Shown: one piece after another, positions 5,523 through 57,478 of the stretch | Layout of the letters: every line of letters begins with the position of its first letter | Numbering within the stretch: position 1 is the first letter of the stretch | Origin: Candidatus Methylomirabilia bacterium | GTDB taxonomy: Bacteria; Methylomirabilota; Methylomirabilia; Rokubacteriales; CSP1-6 | Assembly (NCBI GenBank): GCA_041490825.1 | Contig: JBGPTW010000007.1 | Span: forward strand, 561 to 64,560 | DNA: 64,000 nucleotides | Reading direction: 5' to 3' | Notes under the pieces: model-generated | Told to the model about the DNA's origin: nothing | Seen by the model: only the letters and a program-made list of their open reading frames with translations | Database searches by the model: none | Made by a program: the position numbers and the translations under genes

Positions 5523-6683
5523 TCAGCTCCAGAGGCGTTGGGTCGCGAGATCGGCGCCCGCGCGCAGCGTCCGGAGCTTCGCCCACACGACGCTTTCCGC
5601 GACGGCTTCCGTCCCCGCGAACGTGCCGAAGCCGCAGTCGACCGACGCGATCACACGGCTGCGGTCGCCCACGGCATCGACGACCTGGCAGATCCGATCG
5701 GCGACGACCTCCGGGTGCTCGACGAAGTTCGTTGTCGAATCGATCACGCCGGGCAGCAGCAGCATTGAGTCGGGCAGCGGATGTCGTTTGAAGACCTTGT
5801 ACTCGTGCGCGTGCCGCGGGTTGGCGAGCTCGATGGACAGCGCGCCGACGCGAGCCCGGTAGAGCATCGGCAGGATCGCCTCGAGCGGCACGTCGTGGAC
5901 GTGAGGGCCGTCGTAGTTGCCCCAGCAGACGTGCAGGCGAACGCGATCCGGCGGGACGTTAGCGATGGCGCGGTTGACGGCGTCGACGTGCAGCTCCACC
6001 GCCTGCAAGAAGTGGTCGAGCGGATCGTTCTGGAAGAATCGCGTTCGCTCCATCGCGAGGTCGGGACAGTCGACCTGCAGCAGGAAGCCGCGCGCGTGAA
6101 TCAGCTCGTATTCCTTCCGCATCTCGCGCGCGAGCGCCCGGACGTAGCGCTCGTGCGAGCCGTAGAACCCGTCGAGCAGGATCGTTGCGATGGTCCCGGG
6201 CGAGGCCGCGGTCATGAACGGCTCGGCGAACTTCCGCGCCTGCTTGTCCAGTGCCTGGGAGAACACGTCGCATTCTCTGGCGGCCTCGCTCAGGTCCACG
6301 TACTGCACGTCCGCGATCGCCTGAGGCGCGTCGGAGATCCTCGCGCCATGCCGCCGGCGGTCGGCCAGCATCGCGGCGTAGTCCGGAAAGTCCACGAGAT
6401 CGCGCGCGAGCGGCCGGCGACTTTCGCCGCCGAAGCCGCGCATCCGCCGCGCCGGATACGTCGAGAATCCGACGCGCGGCTGCTCGCCGTCGTTGCCGAT
6501 GTCGATGCCGGCCTCGAGCTGCCGGCGCACGACCATCGCGACCGCCGCCTCGACCTGGCGCGCCAGCTCCGCCTCGTCGATGGACTCGCCGCGGTCCTGA
6601 CGCACCAGGAGATCGCGCAGGACTGGATTGCGAGGCAAGCTGCCGACGTGCGTGGTCAAGATCCGCTGATCGCTCTTGCGCAT
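5523..6683 (-). CDS. Cobalamin-independent methionine synthase (MetE C-terminal domain-like, UROD/MetE family) protein
   Basis: 386 aa, MRKSDQRILTTHVGSLPRNP...VDCGFGTFAG, typical of the YxjG/MetE-like family. Confidence 0.7.
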   Translation of the reverse strand: MRKSDQRILTTHVGSLPRNPVLRDLLVRQDRGESIDEAELARQVEAAVAMVVRRQLEAGIDIGNDGEQPRVGFSTYPARRMRGFGGESRRPLARDLVDFPDYAAMLADRRRHGARISDAPQAIADVQYVDLSEAARECDVFSQALDKQARKFAEPFMTAASPGTIATILLDGFYGSHERYVRALAREMRKEYELIHARGFLLQVDCPDLAMERTRFFQNDPLDHFLQAVELHVDAVNRAIANVPPDRVRLHVCWGNYDGPHVHDVPLEAILPMLYRARVGALSIELANPRHAHEYKVFKRHPLPDSMLLLPGVIDSTTNFVEHPEVVADRICQVVDAVGDRSRVIASVDCGFGTFAGTEAVAESVVWAKLRTLRAGADLATQRLWS

Positions 6684-6788
6684 GGCTCTGTCCTCTGCGT
6701 CAGGTTCGTGGCGGACGTCAGGTCAGGGTCGCAGACGCGACACTAGCCGGTGTCATGAACGCTCGCCGTCAATCGAGCGCGTGGCGTC

Positions 6789-6935
6789 GCGGGCCGGCCG
6801 GGTCGGTGAGGGGCCTCTGACCACGAGGCCCTTTGACCGATGACCCGCGAGCCGTTCCCACTCGCGGCCTGGTTGCCCTCGATAGGACGCTCCGGGAACG
6901 GGTCCGCCGGCCCCCCACCGACCCGGCCGGCCCGC
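6789..6935 (-). promoter_or_regulatory. Structured 5' leader of the MetE-like gene; candidate riboswitch or regulatory RNA of unassigned class
   Basis: A 22-bp long-range inverted repeat (6789-6812 vs 6912-6935) encloses nested stems (ccgttccc/gggaacgg, cgcgag/ctcgcg, gggcctc/gaggccc). It lies 100-250 nt upstream of the start codon. Confidence 0.3.
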
Positions 6936-7070
6936 GGCGACACGCTGTCCCCGGCCTCGGTCGTTCGGCGATGATCGGGGCAAAGACGCCTGTGGTCAGA
7001 GGACCCCGGCTGCCTGTCTCCCGCCGGATCACCGGTCGGCGCGCGCGTCGGTCGTTCATGAATAATCGCA

Positions 7071-7514
7071 CTAGCCCGTGTCGCCGACGAGCTTGGCCGC
7101 TTCGATCCCGGCGACCGCGCACGCCTCGTCCTTGTCGGAGACGTCGCCGGAAATCCCGACAGCGCCGATCACTTCGCCGGCGGTGTTCTTGACCAGCACG
7201 CCCCCGGCGGCAGGGACGACGCCGTGGCCGCCCGAGATGGCGTTCAGCGCCGTGAAGAACGTCGCCTGCGCCGGCTGCTCGGCGACGCGGCGGAAGAGCG
7301 CCCGCGAGCCCATGCCCATGCCGAGCGCGCCCCACGCCTTGCCGGTGGCGATCTGCGGCCGGATGATCCCGGCGCCGTCCTCGCGCGCGAACGCTTTGAG
7401 ATGTCCGCCGGCGTCGAGCACGGCAATGGCGAGCGGCGCGCAGCCGGTCTCGCGTCCCTTCTTGAGCGCCGCCTCGATGATGGTGCCCGCTTGCTGCAGC
7501 GTGATCCCGGCCAT
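7071..7514 (-). CDS. GlcG/HbpS-like heme-binding protein (DUF336)
   Basis: 147 aa, MAGITLQQAGTIIEAALKKGRETGCAPLAIAVLDAGGHL. Confidence 0.7.
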   Translation of the reverse strand: MAGITLQQAGTIIEAALKKGRETGCAPLAIAVLDAGGHLKAFAREDGAGIIRPQIATGKAWGALGMGMGSRALFRRVAEQPAQATFFTALNAISGGHGVVPAAGGVLVKNTAGEVIGAVGISGDVSDKDEACAVAGIEAAKLVGDTG

Positions 7515-7535
7515 GGCTGGTCCTTTCTTTTCGCT

Positions 7536-17184: not shown

Positions 17185-17208
17185 GTCACTTCCCGTTGCG
17201 CCTGCGAC

Positions 17209-17670
17209 GGGGCGGGGCCGCGCTCCGCTGAACACGCTATCCACTCTGCCGCGTCCGGCTTTCAGTTGGGGCCACGAGACTCTGCCGCTTGCTTCAGTCG
17301 GTCCGCAGAAGCCACGGTTCAGCGGAGCGCAGCCCCGCCCCGCCGCACGCACCGGCGGACGCCGGCGGGGCCGCGCTCCGCTGAACACGCTATCCACTCT
17401 GCCGCTGCCGGCTCGCGGTTGGGGCCACGAGACTCTGCCGCTTGCTTCAGTCGGTCCGCAGAAGCCACGGTTCAGCGGAGCGCAGCCCCGCCCCGCCGCA
17501 CGCACCGGCGGCCGCTGGCGGAGCCGCGCTCCGCTGAACACGCTATCCACTCTGCCGCTGCCGGCTCTCAGTTGGGGCCACGAGACTCTGACGCTTGCTT
17601 CAGTCGGTCCGCAGAAGCCACGGTTCAGCGGAGCGCAGCCCCGCCCCGCCGCACGCACCGGCGGACGCCG
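17209..17670. repeat. Tandem array, 153-bp unit x3. Each unit is a conserved ~80-bp core flanked by 23-bp inverted-repeat arms (ggcggggccgcgctccgctgaac / gttcagcggagcgcagccccgcc)
   Basis: Unit starts at 17221, 17374 and 17527, read in sequence. Related copies are at 42288-42441 and 53475-53620. Confidence 0.85.
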
Positions 17671-17756
17671 CCGGCCGCCTTGACAGCGCGCGTGTGCGCG
17701 GCATAGACATGGGGCCGGATCGCTGACCCGAGCCGCGACCGATCCGGAGGAACGCG

Positions 17757-18821
17757 ATGTCCATTCCCTCGACGATGAAGGCGGTTGTCCTCCACGGCGC
17801 CGACGAGATGCGCGTGGAGCAGCGGCGGGTGCCGGAGCTTGCTCCCGGCGAAGTGCTGCTGAAAGTGAACGTCGCGTCGATCTGCGGCACCGACGTCAAG
17901 GTGCTGCACAGGAAGCTCATGGGGCAGCCCGACGGCGACTTCATCATGGGCCATGAGTACGCCGGCACGGTGACGACGCTCGGTCCTGACGTGGACGAGT
18001 TCAAGGTCGGAGATCGCGTCGCGGTCGAGGTGCACAAGGGCTGCGAGCGCTGCGAGAACTGCATCAAGGGCTGGTACACGTCGTGTCTCAATTACGGCAA
18101 CCTCGCCAAGGGTCACCGCGCCAAGGGCCTCACGTGCGACGGCGGGTTTGCCGAATACGCGGTGAACCACATCAACACGCTCTACCGGCTGCCGGACAAT
18201 CTCACGTTCGAGCAAGCGTGCATGGTGACGACGGCGGCGTCACCGCTCTGGGCCATCGACCTGATGGGCGGCTACGTCGCCGGAGAGACGGTGCTCGTGC
18301 AGGGCCCAGGGCCGATCGGCCTCATTGCGGTCCAGCTCTGCAAGGCGCTCGGCGCCGAGCAGATCATCCTGAGCGGCACGCGCGACGAGCGTCTGGCGAT
18401 CGGCCGGCAACTCGGCGCCGACCATGTGATCAACGTGCGGCGGGAAACGCTGCTGGACCGCGTGCTGGAGATCACCGGCGGCAAGGGCGCCGATTCCGTG
18501 CTCGAGTGCGCGGGCGGCGCGACGTCGATGCAGGAGGCGCTCGAGTGCGTGAAGCGCGGCGGTCGTATCGGCGTCGTGGCCTGGTACACCGGCCCCGTGC
18601 AGATCGACATGAACCTCGCCGTGCGGAGCAACGTCCGGATCTACGCTGCGCGGGGCGAAGGCGGCATGAATTGCGGCCGGTCGCTGGCGCTGATGAGCGC
18701 CGGCAAGATCCTGGCTGACCCGATCATCACGCACCACTTCCCGCTCGAGAAGATCAATGACGCGTTCGACACGTACATGAATCGCGTCGGGAACGCCCTC
18801 AAAGTCGTTCTTCATGTTTGA
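17757..18821 (+). CDS. Zinc-dependent alcohol dehydrogenase (MDR family, threonine/sorbitol dehydrogenase-like)
   Basis: GHEYAG, the C..C..C..C structural-zinc motif, and the GPGPIG Rossmann motif. Confidence 0.85.
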   Translation: MSIPSTMKAVVLHGADEMRVEQRRVPELAPGEVLLKVNVASICGTDVKVLHRKLMGQPDGDFIMGHEYAGTVTTLGPDVDEFKVGDRVAVEVHKGCERCENCIKGWYTSCLNYGNLAKGHRAKGLTCDGGFAEYAVNHINTLYRLPDNLTFEQACMVTTAASPLWAIDLMGGYVAGETVLVQGPGPIGLIAVQLCKALGAEQIILSGTRDERLAIGRQLGADHVINVRRETLLDRVLEITGGKGADSVLECAGGATSMQEALECVKRGGRIGVVAWYTGPVQIDMNLAVRSNVRIYAARGEGGMNCGRSLALMSAGKILADPIITHHFPLEKINDAFDTYMNRVGNALKVVLHV

Positions 18822-40455: not shown

Positions 40456-42285
40456 ATGCGGCTCACCCTGGTGAAACGGCTCCTCGTCGGCACGCCCATG
40501 CCGCTCGCGCAGGCGCGGCACGAGCGGCTCCGCAAGACCGTCGCCCTCGCGGTCTTCTCGTCCGACGCCATGTCGTCGGTGGCGTACGCGACAGAGGAAA
40601 TTCTCCTCATCCTCGTGCTGGCGAGCGCGGCTGCCACGTACCTCGCCACGCCGATCGCCATCTCGATCACCGCGCTGCTGGTGATCGTCGCGATCTCCTA
40701 CCAGCAGACGATCCACGCCTACCCGAGCGGCGGCGGGTCGTACATCGTCGCGCGTGAGAACCTGGGTGCCGTGCCGGGTCTGATCGCGGCCGCGGCGTTG
40801 CTCGTCGATTACGTCCTGACGGTCTCGGTGTCAGTCGCGGCCGGGGTGGCCGCCATCACGTCGGCCGTGCCGGCGCTGGCGACGCACAAGGTCCTGATCG
40901 GCGTGGTGTGCGTCGCCGCCATCGCGAGCGCGAACATCCGTGGCGTCCGCGAGTCCGGCCGTCTCTTCGCGATCCCGACGTACTTCTTCATCGTCAGCTT
41001 CGCGCTGCTGCTGCTCGGCGGGTTCTACAAGCTTCTGACCGGCACGGCCGAGACGGCGCCATCGCCCACCGACGTGCGGATGTCCGAGCAGCTGACGTGG
41101 TTCCTGATCCTGCGCGCGTTCGCCTCGGGTTGCACGGCCATGACAGGGACGGAAGCGATCTCGAACGGTATCCCGGCGTTCCGTCCGCCCGAGTCGCGGA
41201 ACGCGGCCATCACCCTCGGCTGGATGGCGGCGATCCTCGGGACGCTGTTCATGGGCATCACGGTTCTGGCGTCGGCGTACCACGTGCTGCCCCTCGAGGA
41301 CGAGACCGTCGTTTCGCAGATCGCGCGGCGCGTGTTCGGCACGGGCCTCGCCTACTACCTGATCCAGGCGGCGACCGCCCTGATCCTCGTGCTGGCCGCC
41401 AACACCTCGTTCGCCGACTTCCCGCGCCTGTCGTCGCTCCTGGCGCGCGACCGATTCATCCCGCGTCAGTTTGCGAATCTCGGCGAGCGCCTGGTGTTCT
41501 CGAACGGGATCATGGTGCTGGCCGCGCTCGCCGCCGTGCTGATCATCGTCTTCCGCGGTGACACGCATGCCCTCATCCCGCTGTACGCGGTCGGCGTGTT
41601 CATCTCGTTCACACTCTCGCAAAGCGGGATGGTGCGCCACTGGTGGCGTCTACGGCAGACCGGCTGGCGGCATCGACTGCTGATCAACGGCGTGGGCGCC
41701 ACGGCGACCGGCATCGTGACGATCGTCATCGCGGTCACCAAGTTCACGCACGGCGCCTGGATCGTCGTGCTCGTCATCCCGATCCTGGTGGCGACCTTTC
41801 TCATCATGCGCGGCCATTACGACGAGGTTGCCTCGGAGCTGTCGCTGGAAGGCTTCGAAGGACCGCCGCCGTTTCAGCACACCATTCTCGTCGTCATCGG
41901 CGACGTCCACCGCGGCGTCGTGCGCGCGCTTCAGTATGCGAAGACACTTGCGGGCCCGGAGACGAGGGTTCGCGCCGTCTTCGTGGAGACGGATCCCGCG
42001 CGCACCGCGAAGCTCGAGGAGAAGTGGGGGAAGTGGGGCCTCGGCGTGCCCCTCATCGTGCTGACGTCACCGTACCGATCGCTGCTCCGACCGCTGCTCG
42101 ATTACCTCGACCACATCCAGTCGCTCGGCGACGATCAGATGCTGACGATCGTGCTGCCCGAGTTCCTGCCGCGGAAGTGGTGGCAGCATGTCCTCCACAA
42201 CCAGACGGCGCTGTTGATCAAAGGCGCGCTCCTGTTCCGCAAAAACACCGTGGTCGCCGACGTGCCGTATCTCCTGAAGCGCTAG
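40456..42285 (+). CDS. APC-superfamily permease with a C-terminal cytoplasmic domain
   Basis: 609 aa, multi-TM, amino-acid-permease-like N-terminal two-thirds. Confidence 0.7.
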   Translation: MRLTLVKRLLVGTPMPLAQARHERLRKTVALAVFSSDAMSSVAYATEEILLILVLASAAATYLATPIAISITALLVIVAISYQQTIHAYPSGGGSYIVARENLGAVPGLIAAAALLVDYVLTVSVSVAAGVAAITSAVPALATHKVLIGVVCVAAIASANIRGVRESGRLFAIPTYFFIVSFALLLLGGFYKLLTGTAETAPSPTDVRMSEQLTWFLILRAFASGCTAMTGTEAISNGIPAFRPPESRNAAITLGWMAAILGTLFMGITVLASAYHVLPLEDETVVSQIARRVFGTGLAYYLIQAATALILVLAANTSFADFPRLSSLLARDRFIPRQFANLGERLVFSNGIMVLAALAAVLIIVFRGDTHALIPLYAVGVFISFTLSQSGMVRHWWRLRQTGWRHRLLINGVGATATGIVTIVIAVTKFTHGAWIVVLVIPILVATFLIMRGHYDEVASELSLEGFEGPPPFQHTILVVIGDVHRGVVRALQYAKTLAGPETRVRAVFVETDPARTAKLEEKWGKWGLGVPLIVLTSPYRSLLRPLLDYLDHIQSLGDDQMLTIVLPEFLPRKWWQHVLHNQTALLIKGALLFRKNTVVADVPYLLKR

Positions 42286-42287
42286 CT

Positions 42288-42441
42288 CCTCCGCGGGTGG
42301 GGCTGGCGTCGCTCTCCCCAGAAGACGCTATCCACTTTGCTCTGTCGGCTCTCATTGGAGCCACGCATCGTCGCGCCCGGCTCAGTCAAGCCCCAGAAGC
42401 AACGCTTCTGGGGAGAGCGACGCCAGCCCCACCCGCGGAGG
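42288..42441. repeat. Palindrome-embedded repeat element: 37-bp perfect inverted-repeat arms flanking an ~80-bp conserved core (acgctatccactttgc...cagaagcaacg)
   Basis: Arms 42288-42324 / 42405-42441 read in sequence. It starts 3 nt after the stop codon of the permease. The core is homologous to units of the 17209-17670 array. Confidence 0.7.
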
Positions 42442-42613
42442 CTGAACTGTCAGTCAGGTGCTCGCAGCCCGACCACCAACACGGGTTCAGCGGCCAGGCC
42501 GCGAACAATGCGAATCAGCGGCCCACGCCCAGCAAGAACAGGATCAGGATCAGCCCGAGCGGGGCGCCAAGTAACCACAGAAGGATCAGCGCCATGATGT
42601 CTGCCTCCTTTCC

Positions 42614-52626: not shown

Positions 52627-53445
52627 ATGAACTCGATCAACCGGCGACGATTTCTCTCGATGGCCGCGATGGCGGCCATGCTCTTTCGCTCCCGCAACGC
52701 GTTGGCGCAGGCGGGACCGGCCTCGGCAGGACCGGCCGATCCCAAGCTGATCGAGGACCTGGTGGCCGCGAACCACATCCTCGTGGACCAGGGCGTCGTC
52801 GATGGCTACGGCCACGTGAGTGTGCGCCATGATCGCGATGCGAACCGCTACCTGATGTCCCGCTCGATCGCGCCGGAGCTGGTCACCGCGACCGACATCA
52901 TGGAGTACGACCTCGACAGCAACGCCGTGGACCCGAAAGGTCGCACGACCTATCTCGAGCGCTTCATCCACGGCGAGATCTACAAGGTGCGCCCCGACGT
53001 GAAGGCGATCGTCCACAACCATTCGCCGTCGGTGATTCCGTTCGGCGTGACCGGCGCCGAGCTGAAGCCGCTCTATCACATGAGCGCGTTCCTCGGCGGC
53101 GGCGTGCCGGTGTTCGACATCCGCGCTGCGACGGGCCAGGACACCGACATGCTGGTACGCAATCCCGCGATCGGCAAGGCGCTGGCCGCGAAGCTCGGCG
53201 CCGCGCCCGTCGCGCTGATGCGTGGCCACGGCGCCGTCGTCGTTGGCGCGGCGCTGCCGCAAGCGGTGTTCCGGAGCGTGTACACGGAGGTCAACGCGAA
53301 GCTTCAGGCGCAGGCGATGGCGCTCGGCGGCGGGAACGTCACGTACCTCGATGCCGACGAGGCGAAGAAGGCCGAGGCCTCCGTCGGCGGAACGATCGCG
53401 CGGCCCTGGGAGCTCTGGAAGAAGAAAGCGCTCGGGGGTCGGTAG
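52627..53445 (+). CDS. Class II aldolase/adducin family protein with a Tat-type signal (MNSINRRRFLSMAAMAAMLF)
   Basis: Internal ATG of ORF 52231..53445. Confidence 0.65.
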   Translation: MNSINRRRFLSMAAMAAMLFRSRNALAQAGPASAGPADPKLIEDLVAANHILVDQGVVDGYGHVSVRHDRDANRYLMSRSIAPELVTATDIMEYDLDSNAVDPKGRTTYLERFIHGEIYKVRPDVKAIVHNHSPSVIPFGVTGAELKPLYHMSAFLGGGVPVFDIRAATGQDTDMLVRNPAIGKALAAKLGAAPVALMRGHGAVVVGAALPQAVFRSVYTEVNAKLQAQAMALGGGNVTYLDADEAKKAEASVGGTIARPWELWKKKALGGR

Positions 53446-53474
53446 CGTCCTACGTCAGAATTTCGTCACCACCC

Positions 53475-53620
53475 GCGATCGACGGCCGGGCTTGCTCTCC
53501 TCAGACCCGCAATCCACTTCGCTGATACGGCTCTCGTTAGGGCCACGAGTTCGCTACGCGCGCTTCAGTCGGTCCGCAGAAGCCACGGGTCTGAGGAGAG
53601 CAAGCCCGGCCGTCGATCGC
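53475..53620. repeat. Palindrome-embedded repeat element: 34-bp perfect inverted-repeat arms flanking a conserved 78-bp core
   Basis: Arms 53475-53508 / 53587-53620. It starts 30 nt after the aldolase stop. The core ...ggctctcgttagggccacgag...gcttcagtcggtccgcagaagccac is shared with 17209-17670. Confidence 0.7.
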
Positions 53621-53748
53621 TTCCGTGATAGCACGTCTGACGTAGCCCGTAGCGCCACCGCAGAATGACTTTGGCTAGCGCGGCGTTTTGGGTCGCGCGG
53701 CCGGCCGGACCGGTTGACTTTCGGGCCTAAAAGTCGTCTACTGACTGA

Positions 53749-55379: not shown

Positions 55380-55566
55380 GTCTTTTTATCAACATTATTA
55401 GTGCCTTATGGGAGACCTGCCTATCTGATGTTGTTCATGTTTGACACATGTTCACGTTTGGTGTACATGAGAATTAACTGAACATAAATTGTGGTCGTTC
55501 ATAACTTCATGATGTTCACGTAACGTGAACATGTATATAAAATGAACAGATGGTAAGGACTAAGCC
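55380..55566 (+). promoter_or_regulatory. Markedly AT-rich promoter/operator region with palindromes (TGTTCACG-TAA-CGTGAACA; CATGT-N5-ACATG; repeated TGTTCA/TGAACA half-sites)
   Basis: Read in sequence immediately upstream of the ATG at 55567. Confidence 0.4.
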
Positions 55567-56634
55567 ATGGCCCCACGAACAGAGCCGCATAAGCGAGACC
55601 TGAGACTCTTGGATGACGCCCTCGGCGCGTTAACGCGTACAACTGGGCTTAAAGCGACCGTTACCGCCCGCGAGCCCACACGCGCAACAGCCGCACGCGC
55701 CGGCGCGATGATTGAGATCCACGCGAATGGCAAGCGCTTCCCGTTCTTTGCCGAAGTCAAGGCTGTGGATCGCGTCGTCGCGCTTGCGACCATCAAGAAC
55801 CAGTTCGGAAAGCACGCCAAGCGGGGCGTGCTTGTCACGCCCTACCTCACGGCGGAGCTTGCCGATCACTGCCGCAAGGAACTCGACCTTCACTTCATCG
55901 ACACTGCCGGCAACGCGTACCTGCGAGCGCCAGGCCTCTACGTCTTTGTCCGTGGGGAGCGCCCGCCAACCACAGCGATGGCCATGGGCACTCGTGGCGG
56001 CGGCACCGCGACCGCACTCCGGGTCGTCTTCGCCCTGCTCTGCAAACCCGAGCTCCTCAACGCGCCATATAGAAACATTGTTGAAGTCGCCGACGTCGCC
56101 CTGGGTGCAGTCGGTTGCGTCTTCTTCGATCTCCAGGGCCGAGGTTACATTGCAGGAGGGTTACGGAAGCGCAACCGCCGCTTACTGGAGCCTGATCGCC
56201 TCCTTGACGAATGGGTCACCAATTTCCCTGTCAAACTGCGTCCGAAGCTCAATCCACGCCGTTTTCAGGCTCCTGACCCAGGGTGGTGGGAACAAGCGCG
56301 GCTCGATCGCGGCGCGCGCTGGGGAGGCGAAATCGCCGCAGCAAAACTAACCGGCCATCTCAAGCCGGCGACTTACACGATCTACTTAGACAGACACAGC
56401 GCTGCCGAGACTATCGCCACACTCGTGAAGCAACACCGGCTGCGTGCTGATCCCCGCGGCAACGTCGAGATTCTCGACGCATTTTGGACTTTCCATCTCG
56501 AGGGCACTCAGCTAGACGTTGTTCCGCCACTTCTCGTCTATGCGGATCTCATGGCCACTCTCGATCCGCGCAACCTCGAAGTCGCAAAGCAAGTCCGCGA
56601 ACAGTACATCAAGCATGCTCTCCGTCCCGTCTGA
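55567..56634 (+). CDS. Hypothetical protein, upstream partner of a nucleotidyltransferase (possible AbiEi-like antitoxin or regulator)
   Basis: 355 aa. Its 3' end overlaps the downstream gene by 20 nt. Partner-based inference only. Confidence 0.35.
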   Translation: MAPRTEPHKRDLRLLDDALGALTRTTGLKATVTAREPTRATAARAGAMIEIHANGKRFPFFAEVKAVDRVVALATIKNQFGKHAKRGVLVTPYLTAELADHCRKELDLHFIDTAGNAYLRAPGLYVFVRGERPPTTAMAMGTRGGGTATALRVVFALLCKPELLNAPYRNIVEVADVALGAVGCVFFDLQGRGYIAGGLRKRNRRLLEPDRLLDEWVTNFPVKLRPKLNPRRFQAPDPGWWEQARLDRGARWGGEIAAAKLTGHLKPATYTIYLDRHSAAETIATLVKQHRLRADPRGNVEILDAFWTFHLEGTQLDVVPPLLVYADLMATLDPRNLEVAKQVREQYIKHALRPV

Positions 56635-57478
56635 GCGTTCCCTCCCAGCGAGAACACTCGAAGTCTTGAGGCTGGTGGATCGCGTTGCGCGAGAGCTGCG
56701 GGTCGCTTATTTCGTGACAGGCGCGATCGCACGGGACATTCTCCTGCATGGTGTTTTCGGTATCGACCCCGGCCGAGGAACACTGGATGTAGACCTCGCC
56801 GTAGCCGTGCAGAATTGGCCGCAGTTCGAGTTGATTAAGACGCGCCTCGTCGCGACGAACGCATTTACTGCCGAAGAAAGAATGCCTCATCGGCTCTTTC
56901 ATCGCGAAGACGCGAGTGAGAAAGCTTATCCGCTCGATCTCCTCCCTTTCGGTGGTATCGAACAGCCTCCGAACAAAATCGTCTGGCCTCCGGAGCTCTC
57001 CATCGTCATGAACGTGGCTGGTTATCGAGAGGCGCTGGCTGCTGCACAAGACGTTGAGGTCGCTACAGGCTTCGTCGTGCCTGTCGCCTCGTTGCCGGGC
57101 CTCGCCATACTGAAGCTGCTAGCGTGGGCTGACCGCGGCATCGAAAATCCGAAAGATGCCGTCGATCTCGTTACGCTGCTGCGCTGGTATGGCGGAGCCG
57201 GCAACGAAGACCGACTCTTCGGCGAAGAGATGAGTCTCCTCGAGAGTCTGGGTTACAACATGGATCTCGCCGGTCCGCAGCTTCTCGGCAAAGACGCCGC
57301 TCGGATCACCACAACGGGGACTCGCAACCTAGCTCTCGCGCTCCTCGACGATGCGGTGACCCTGGAGCGCCTCACACGAGACATGGCAAGGGCATTCCGC
57401 GGCGCCGAAGATCCCATCGGTGAGGCCGAGGCTTTCATCGCGCAATTCAAGACCGGGTTGCAGGCGGCCTCACCATAA
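56615..57478 (+). CDS. Nucleotidyltransferase of the AbiEii/AbiGii toxin family type (Pol-beta-like NTase fold)
   Basis: YFVTGAIARDILLHGVFGIDPGRGTLDVDLAV matches the GG.A......R.T.DID-type NTase motif. 287 aa. Confidence 0.5.
   Translation: MLSVPSERSLPARTLEVLRLVDRVARELRVAYFVTGAIARDILLHGVFGIDPGRGTLDVDLAVAVQNWPQFELIKTRLVATNAFTAEERMPHRLFHREDASEKAYPLDLLPFGGIEQPPNKIVWPPELSIVMNVAGYREALAAAQDVEVATGFVVPVASLPGLAILKLLAWADRGIENPKDAVDLVTLLRWYGGAGNEDRLFGEEMSLLESLGYNMDLAGPQLLGKDAARITTTGTRNLALALLDDAVTLERLTRDMARAFRGAEDPIGEAEAFIAQFKTGLQAASP

Follow-up and report, generated by a model that had tools for sequence, protein, structure and literature searches.

Three loci in the 64-kb window of the source genome (the window being the whole stretch of DNA that was analysed) carry hairpins which we regard, with a probability of about 0.6, as copies of one dispersed, non-coding, MITE/REPIN-like and probably non-autonomous family of mobile elements from Rokubacteria-type soil bacteria. 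The hairpin repeat family is previously undescribed. Rokubacteria (Methylomirabilota) abound in soil, are uncultured and have large genomes; no description of their repeat content was found in the searchable literature. The elements are small and non-coding, with units of 129-216 bp, inside the limit of ~500 bp usual for prokaryotic MITEs, and consist of an apex (core), constant at 80-83 nt across members, between long complementary stem arms. A coding role for the core was rejected, since its length varies within 80-83 nt and no reading frame is conserved.

The window holds one array of three units and two single copies, B and C. A degenerate core pattern matched five times at these three loci, always on the + strand and never in shuffled sequences, confirming the sequence-only reading that the loci have a core in common. 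A 26-mer of the core recurs exactly at 53562-53587. Searching the 64-kb window with a core profile (nhmmer) gave no copy beyond the five known, divergent ones included, and a six-frame search for other copies with 'spurious ORF' peptides found nothing. Tandem Repeats Finder reported a single array, at 17211-17674, with a period of 153, 3.0 copies and 95% matches, in agreement with the triplicated 153-bp unit described earlier. Each array unit is built, on the + strand, of inner arm, 83-nt core and inner arm (129 nt) plus a 24-nt spacer. In unit 1 (17200-17350, + strand; core 17234-17316) the inner arms are 23 nt with one mismatch, and pairing can be extended to 34 nt at 91% (17200-17233 with 17317-17350). 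Unit 2 (17364-17492, + strand) has 23-nt arms at 17364-17386 and 17470-17492 with one C:A mismatch around a core at 17387-17469, and unit 3 (17517-17645, + strand) has 23-nt arms at 17517-17539 and 17623-17645 with two mismatches around a core at 17540-17622.

Copy B (42288-42441, + strand) has 37-nt arms at 42288-42324 and 42405-42441, 100% paired, around an 80-nt core at 42325-42404. Copy C (+ strand) is a full unit of ~204 nt (53446-53649; core about 53508-53587), with 35-nt inner arms at 53475-53509 and 53586-53620 that are likewise 100% paired. Arms had been described as perfect within each locus; this holds for copies B and C but not for the array units, with their one or two mismatches in 23 nt. 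Nor are the arms complete as first described: in copy C, an internal loop of 15-16 nt per side separates the inner arms from an outer stem on the + strand, in which CTACGTCAGA (53450-53459) pairs with TCTGACGTAG (53636-53645). Clear outer termini are recognisable in copy C and absent from the array and copy B. At 42442-42471 on the + strand (CTGAACTGTCAGTCAGGTGCTCG followed by CAGCCCG), copy B may retain a trace of its outer right terminus; tentatively, this sequence resembles the right end of the metagenomic S subfamily. Folding of each window unit was far above that of shuffled sequences, with z-scores of -5.6 to -13, on either strand.

Members of the family were also present on metagenomic contigs. 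A strict pattern, tried first, gave 0 matches; a relaxed pattern covering the 3' two-thirds of the core matched 44 contigs and identified ~34 true members with the arm-core-arm build. These loci were chosen by core pattern, lie on contigs without verified taxonomy and may include assembly chimeras, and gene calls on them are GC3-based approximations. All member contigs are 67-73% G+C, several carry soil-sample identifiers, and one (L073) also holds the ATCCAC variant of the window. The same DNA as the window is present in JGI soil metagenomes and in the NCBI MAG GCA_041482695.1. Contigs L054, L055 and L059 represent the same DNA as the window at 17.4 kb and 42.4 kb, and such short-read contigs stop inside elements: two JGI contigs terminate within the tandem array, and the MAG contig JBGPEG010000029.1 stops 20 nt short of the end of copy B. 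In L055, a core of the unit 2 type occupies the place of unit 3 of the window, reflecting either array heterogeneity or assembly collapse.

Aligned without gaps from their inner ends, the arms of the array, copy B and copy C have GC(T/G)CTCC.C.GA.. in common, with a GGC.GG.C block farther out. The sequence-only reading had called the arms completely different between loci; in fact their first 20 bp are 65-70% identical between the window loci (cores, 70-71%), and every substitution is matched in the partner arm, with one position appearing as G-C, C-G and U-A in the three loci. The family arm consensus is roughly GGGGCCGGGGG.GC.CTCCCCGGGAC. Among 34 distinct elements the arms measure 17-45 bp (median 33), 1033 of 1072 arm pairs (96%) are Watson-Crick, and 15 elements have perfect arms (17-45 bp); mean identity between elements is 0.62 in the arms and 0.64 in the cores. 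Across 28 distinct sequences, 97.4% of the cells of the 14 inner pairs are paired and 12 of the 14 pairs have changed on both sides, which none of 500 shuffles attained. Sliding the partner by 1-3 columns as a control lowered pairing to 35-57%. The pairing is not a selection artefact, since members were chosen on the core and no other feature and almost all of them have such arms. Neutral decay would erase pairing in copies that are 35-40% diverged, so either the structure is selected or the arms are mutually corrected. As judged from these alignments, the extent of two-sided change and of pairing means that the element includes its stem arms, which change in step with each other, and that these are not pre-existing palindromes. 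This supports what had been offered earlier as an alternative, namely an element, of DNA or RNA, that forms a hairpin with a co-varying stem.

The mismatches that do occur in the stem are unevenly distributed between the strands. On the core-defined + strand, independent A:C events outnumber G:T events by 20 to 4 (two-sided binomial ~0.0015) and C:C events outnumber G:G by 7 to 1, and G-U is nearly absent from the long stem on this strand (4/1072 pairs). Because these mismatches would be stable (G:T, G:G) only in the complementary strand, the asymmetry hints at a single-stranded functional form, of either DNA or RNA.

Invariant positions concentrate in the apex, which has 25 invariant alignment columns, while mid-stem identity between subfamilies is ~62%. 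Near-invariant blocks lie at its 5' end (ACGC..), in its middle (G.GCCACGAGA) and at its 3' end (C.CAGAAGC.ACG). On either strand, RNAalifold, folds of single sequences over the variable segment and a scan of all column pairs detected only one covariation-supported helix in the apex, the short GGCUC-loop-GRGCC. This hairpin alternates between U-A and U-G and between C-G and U-G, which fits + strand RNA only, and the strand that it requires (+) is opposite to the strand favoured by the stem mismatches (-). With no other covarying helix, the apex appears to be conserved as sequence, in the manner of a protein-binding module, and not as an RNA fold.

Full units span ~200-216 bp, and their outer termini are more conserved than the stem. 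In the best sampled subfamily, S, copies resemble each other as far as 67 nt to either side of the core, so that the unit measures ~216 bp and has inverted termini (GTGTCGTGAGTCAGAAGTTCGC... and ...GCGAACTTCAGAGTCAGGACAC). Copy C aligns to the relatively conserved termini, GTGTCSTGASTCWGAAGTTCGC..., that are inverted at both ends in this subfamily. The earlier premise that the terminal inverted repeats are what varies arose because these outer conserved termini went unseen; the true, more conserved termini lie farther out. S copies that are 94-98% identical occur in ~9 distinct flanking contexts, two of them on one 114-kb contig. The usual borders are a TA within CTAG, TTAG, CTAA or GTAG, ~65-72 nt from the core on both sides. 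TA, TAG or (C)TAGC is found at both borders of copy C, of a unit at 6744-7075 of the window, and of the metagenomic elements L075a, L094 and L099; (G/C)TAGC at left ends and TAGCCCG at several right ends form direct, not inverted, repeats. Copy C is flanked on both sides by TAG (53443-53445, which is the aldolase stop codon, and 53650-53652). Among co-oriented stop codons abutting the elements, 9 of 11 are TAG, compared with 29% among 121 background genes (P ~4e-4). The orientation of elements relative to the abutting gene (8 versus 3) shows no significant bias.

Strain comparisons gave further information on boundaries. In a strain 98% identical in AlaRS, the flank is common up to ...TTGCTAG and the element is then missing, which places one element boundary at CTAG/TGTCC. 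Two groups of strains carry the whole unit between CTAG and CTAA in opposite directions at one orthologous site, which lies between convergent genes and has flanks that are 88-95% identical; inside a group, the arms show differences at several positions, all of them compensated. The ~34 metagenomic members and this orientation-variable site support a dispersed, probably mobile family over a local duplication, as had been proposed. A clean empty site with both flanks conserved (candidate duplication TA, TAG or longer) was not found among relatives of the permease, in which downstream synteny was lost, among relatives of the dehydrogenase, in which upstream synteny was lost, or by all-against-all BLAST of the flanks among loci; the AlaRS relatives provided one exact boundary, not both. 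No autonomous partner with matching termini was found in the window or in ~330 kb of element-bearing contigs (~0.4 Mb sampled), all terminus-like matches lying inside the small elements, and no transposase was found among the tested window ORFs. The mobilisation mechanism is thus a proposed one, as neither a cognate enzyme nor an autonomous partner was found, nor an empty site defined on both sides.

Two further metagenomic comparisons showed structural variation. In the strain lacking the S element after alaS, L203 carries at 5743-5794 a 48-nt segment with CTAG on both sides and a GGGGGG-CGAAA-CCCCC hairpin. Genes farther downstream differ from those of the related strain, and the CTAG after alaS is a rearrangement breakpoint between the two strains. 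L061, L069 and L096 represent one locus with 100% identical flanks and carry different truncations of the same S element, lacking the left outer arm, lacking the right outer arm, or differing by a further 44 nt. Either the population contains genuine deletions in a long hairpin, or the repeat was misassembled.

The window copies lie beside housekeeping genes. On one side of the array is a - strand gene for an NMT1_3/TAXI-like binding protein, and on the other the promoter region of a Zn-dependent dehydrogenase gene that begins at 17757 on the + strand. The array had been thought to run into the TAXI gene and to keep both strands open. However, the start of this gene is most likely at 17187 or 17113, before the array, and open strands are weak evidence because long open frames are normal at ~70% G+C. 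Copy B is located between convergent genes, with the TAG stop (42283-42285) of an APC-family permease gene (40456-42285, + strand) at its left boundary, and copy C lies 3' of a class II aldolase gene. Stop codons 3 nt before the arm of copy B and 30 nt before that of copy C were correctly noted in the sequence-only reading. Permease relatives without copy B have the same C-terminus (..LLKR) and the stop codon TGA instead of TAG. The best named homologues of the window permease and dehydrogenase are from Candidatus Rokubacteria / Methylomirabilota MAGs. Directly 5' of the permease gene (34.5-40.4 kb) are kdpDE and kdpFABC and then a gene for a BBP2-family outer-membrane protein, an arrangement kept in relatives, as seen through L058.

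Several explanations other than a mobile family were weighed. That the resemblance is purely local, arising by chance or by regional duplication with no wider family, might seem to follow from how narrowly the elements are distributed. A 5'-half core pattern found no family member in 185,579 species-representative genomes, its 53 matches being chance occurrences in coding DNA of unrelated taxa; blastn found none in plasmids, none of 94 pattern matches in viral contigs was a member, and ~97 kb of sequence from related Rokubacteria, with proteins 83-91% identical to those of the window, contained no copy. However, the ~34 members on independent soil-metagenome contigs have the same architecture and the number of chance matches expected in the window is 0, and we regard a local origin as hardly credible. 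The sequence-only reading favoured a mobile core of ~80 bp whose insertion points would be the centres of palindromes already in place and peculiar to each locus, for instance terminators or REP hairpins. The hairpins do vary from copy to copy in their outermost parts while staying complementary there, and in one contig variant an inner unit seems to sit within another palindromic layer (GAGCGGGCGG...CCGCCCGCCTC). Against this, the inner 20-45 bp of the arms are homologous in all members, in the window loci and the ~34 metagenomic members alike, with a common consensus. Arm and core identities between loci are equal, similarity between copies of a subfamily continues for ~67 nt on each side of the core, and unit boundaries fall at TA/CTAG, far outside the arms. 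Insertion into existing palindromes is thus very improbable.

More weight attaches to the possibility that the family is primarily a functional RNA, whether a terminating or stabilising hairpin of the 3'-UTR, a protein-binding RNA or an sRNA, which selection on the RNA would maintain and duplication would have made multi-copy, with mobility incidental or absent. In its favour, copies immediately follow the 3' ends of genes, the region shows no enrichment of canonical U-tract terminators, the stem covaries strongly, the apex sequence is conserved across subfamilies, the GGCUC-loop-GRGCC hairpin works only as + strand RNA, and stem mismatches are biased to wobble on one strand. Yet the window gave no covariance-model match to Rfam 15 at gathering score, and at E<=10 or E<=1 the window and the metagenomic copies gave just weak hairpin-type chance matches; the core thus matched no known structured RNA in Rfam, an outcome that would have counted against the earlier reading. 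The apex offers no covariation-supported helix besides the one hairpin, and the strand in which that hairpin forms is opposite to the one favoured by the mismatches, the + strand stem having almost no G-U pairs. The elements lack a significant orientation bias relative to the abutting gene, and at one orthologous site the unit occurs either way round. Transposition is indicated by boundaries at TA/CTAG and by the near-identity of copies from unrelated loci. Perfect double-stranded RNA of 30-45 bp is an RNase III substrate, as such stems would be if transcribed. On balance we consider a primary RNA function unlikely. An intrinsic terminator reading was rejected, with no T-run after any right arm and no element flagged in a terminator scan.

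Among the known systems closest to the hairpin family are REPINs, mobilised by RAYT tyrosine (HUH/Y1) transposases. Both are extragenic GC-rich hairpins of roughly 100-200 nt with many dispersed copies. REPINs have been described in ordered tandem clusters and with compensatory changes across the hairpin, and both features are seen here. A REP is defined by a GT(A/G)G head 5' of a palindrome, which the frequent (G/C)TAGC termini of the present elements recall. The REPIN structure is read single-stranded, and strand-asymmetric mismatches such as those found here are the expected trace of such a mechanism. However, REPINs conserve their ends (the REPs), their spacer or apex being least conserved, whereas here the apex is most conserved and the mid-stem drifts, and the TAG(C) motifs of the left and right ends run in direct, not inverted, orientation. 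RAYTs were first reported only in Gammaproteobacteria, and no RAYT gene was seen within the 64-kb window of the source genome.

The TA-target MITEs, Correia/CREE of Neisseria and ERIC of enterobacteria, are similarly non-coding elements of 100-220 bp with inverted-repeat ends, short TA-containing direct repeats at their borders, a conserved core, an intergenic or 3' location and stable hairpins in transcripts. Hairpin transcripts, 3'-UTR location and direct repeats have been described for prokaryotic MITEs, as have effects of the Correia/CREE and ERIC families on mRNA processing. IS630 elements prefer CTAG targets and duplicate TA. In contrast to Correia/CREE and ERIC, with which it has no sequence similarity, the present family is GC-rich and not AT-rich, and its arms are far longer and almost perfectly paired although copies have diverged by 35-40%. 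Classical cut-and-paste MITEs need no perfect complementarity of internal arms, and their internal regions are usually the least conserved. Integron attC sites are also imperfect palindromes just 3' of ORFs with variable stem sequence, recognised as a folded single strand by structure and not by sequence. However, attC conserves the base of its stem (R''/R' boxes, GTTRRRY) and varies its apex, the reverse of what is found here. An attC reading was rejected, as there is no R-box motif, cassette array or integrase nearby and the neighbours are housekeeping genes.

In the mobile-element reading, copies would have spread by transposition into TA-containing sites. Since TA is rare in a 68% G+C genome except in stop codons, the target sites would mostly be stop codons, and an element inserted into the TA of such a codon would restore TAG, G being its first base. 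The stem may be kept paired because the element must fold single-stranded, either for mobilisation or as a transcribed RNA, and mismatch correction between the arms may help to maintain complementarity. The invariant apex would hold sequence determinants read by a putative trans-acting protein. The 153-bp x3 array is probably a secondary local amplification of the inner 129 nt and its 24-nt spacer, by unequal recombination or slippage. Hairpins inserted 3' of genes are likely to be transcribed into 3' ends, as putative terminators or RNA stabilisers.

Other repeats occur near members of the family. A second MITE-like unit of ~330 bp at 6741-7082 of the window is bounded by direct repeats that are almost identical, CACTAGCCGGTGTC (6741-6754) and CACTAGCCCGTGTC (7069-7082); the CTA on the right is the stop codon of a - strand gene at 7071-7535. 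It contains a 37-nt inverted repeat at 92% (6779-6815 / 6909-6945) around a different, 93-nt apex, and its subterminal GTGTCATGAACGCTCGCCGTCAATCGAGCGCGTGGCG is similar to the outer arm found in the metagenomic S subfamily. On sequence resemblance, this suggests that the unit and the hairpin family belong to one superfamily in which apices can be exchanged. Shortly after copy C, in a lower-GC stretch at ~54-58 kb, a 60% G+C island encodes an AbiEi antitoxin and AbiEii nucleotidyltransferase toxin pair (type IV toxin-antitoxin / abortive infection); the segment concerned, 55432-57478, includes an AT-rich imperfect inverted repeat (TGTTCATGTTTGACACATGTTCACG..., 55432-55548) 5' of the pair. On metagenomic contigs, short repeats occur in tandem or dispersed 150-300 nt downstream of family members, with units of 57-60 nt in L090 (~2100-2220; 96% identity in L090 and relatives), L075, L086 and L099, and of ~45 nt in L084 (~700-1070). 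Element-bearing genomes evidently hold several repeat families.

Three features of the hairpin family do not fit a classical MITE: long stems that are strictly kept up, an apex that does not vary, and mismatches that are asymmetric between the strands. They resemble systems that read structure in a single strand, namely REP/RAYT, IS200/IS605 and attC. A tentative and, in our estimate, rather doubtful extension is that the family belongs to a novel type of hairpin-borne mobile element, or of structured nucleic acid, and functions single-stranded, with the apex as the recognition module of a strand-specific enzyme, HUH-like or other. Single-strand reading would account for the co-varying stems, for mismatches stable in one strand and for a conservation pattern inverted relative to MITEs and REPINs. 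If true, it would point to an uncharacterised mobilisation system outside Proteobacteria. The family breaks short-read assemblies of Rokubacteria genomes. As its members mark gene 3' ends at TAG stops in an orientation that varies between strains, they could serve as a population marker, and the family offers natural data on how long stems evolve through compensatory change while the apex between them stays invariant.
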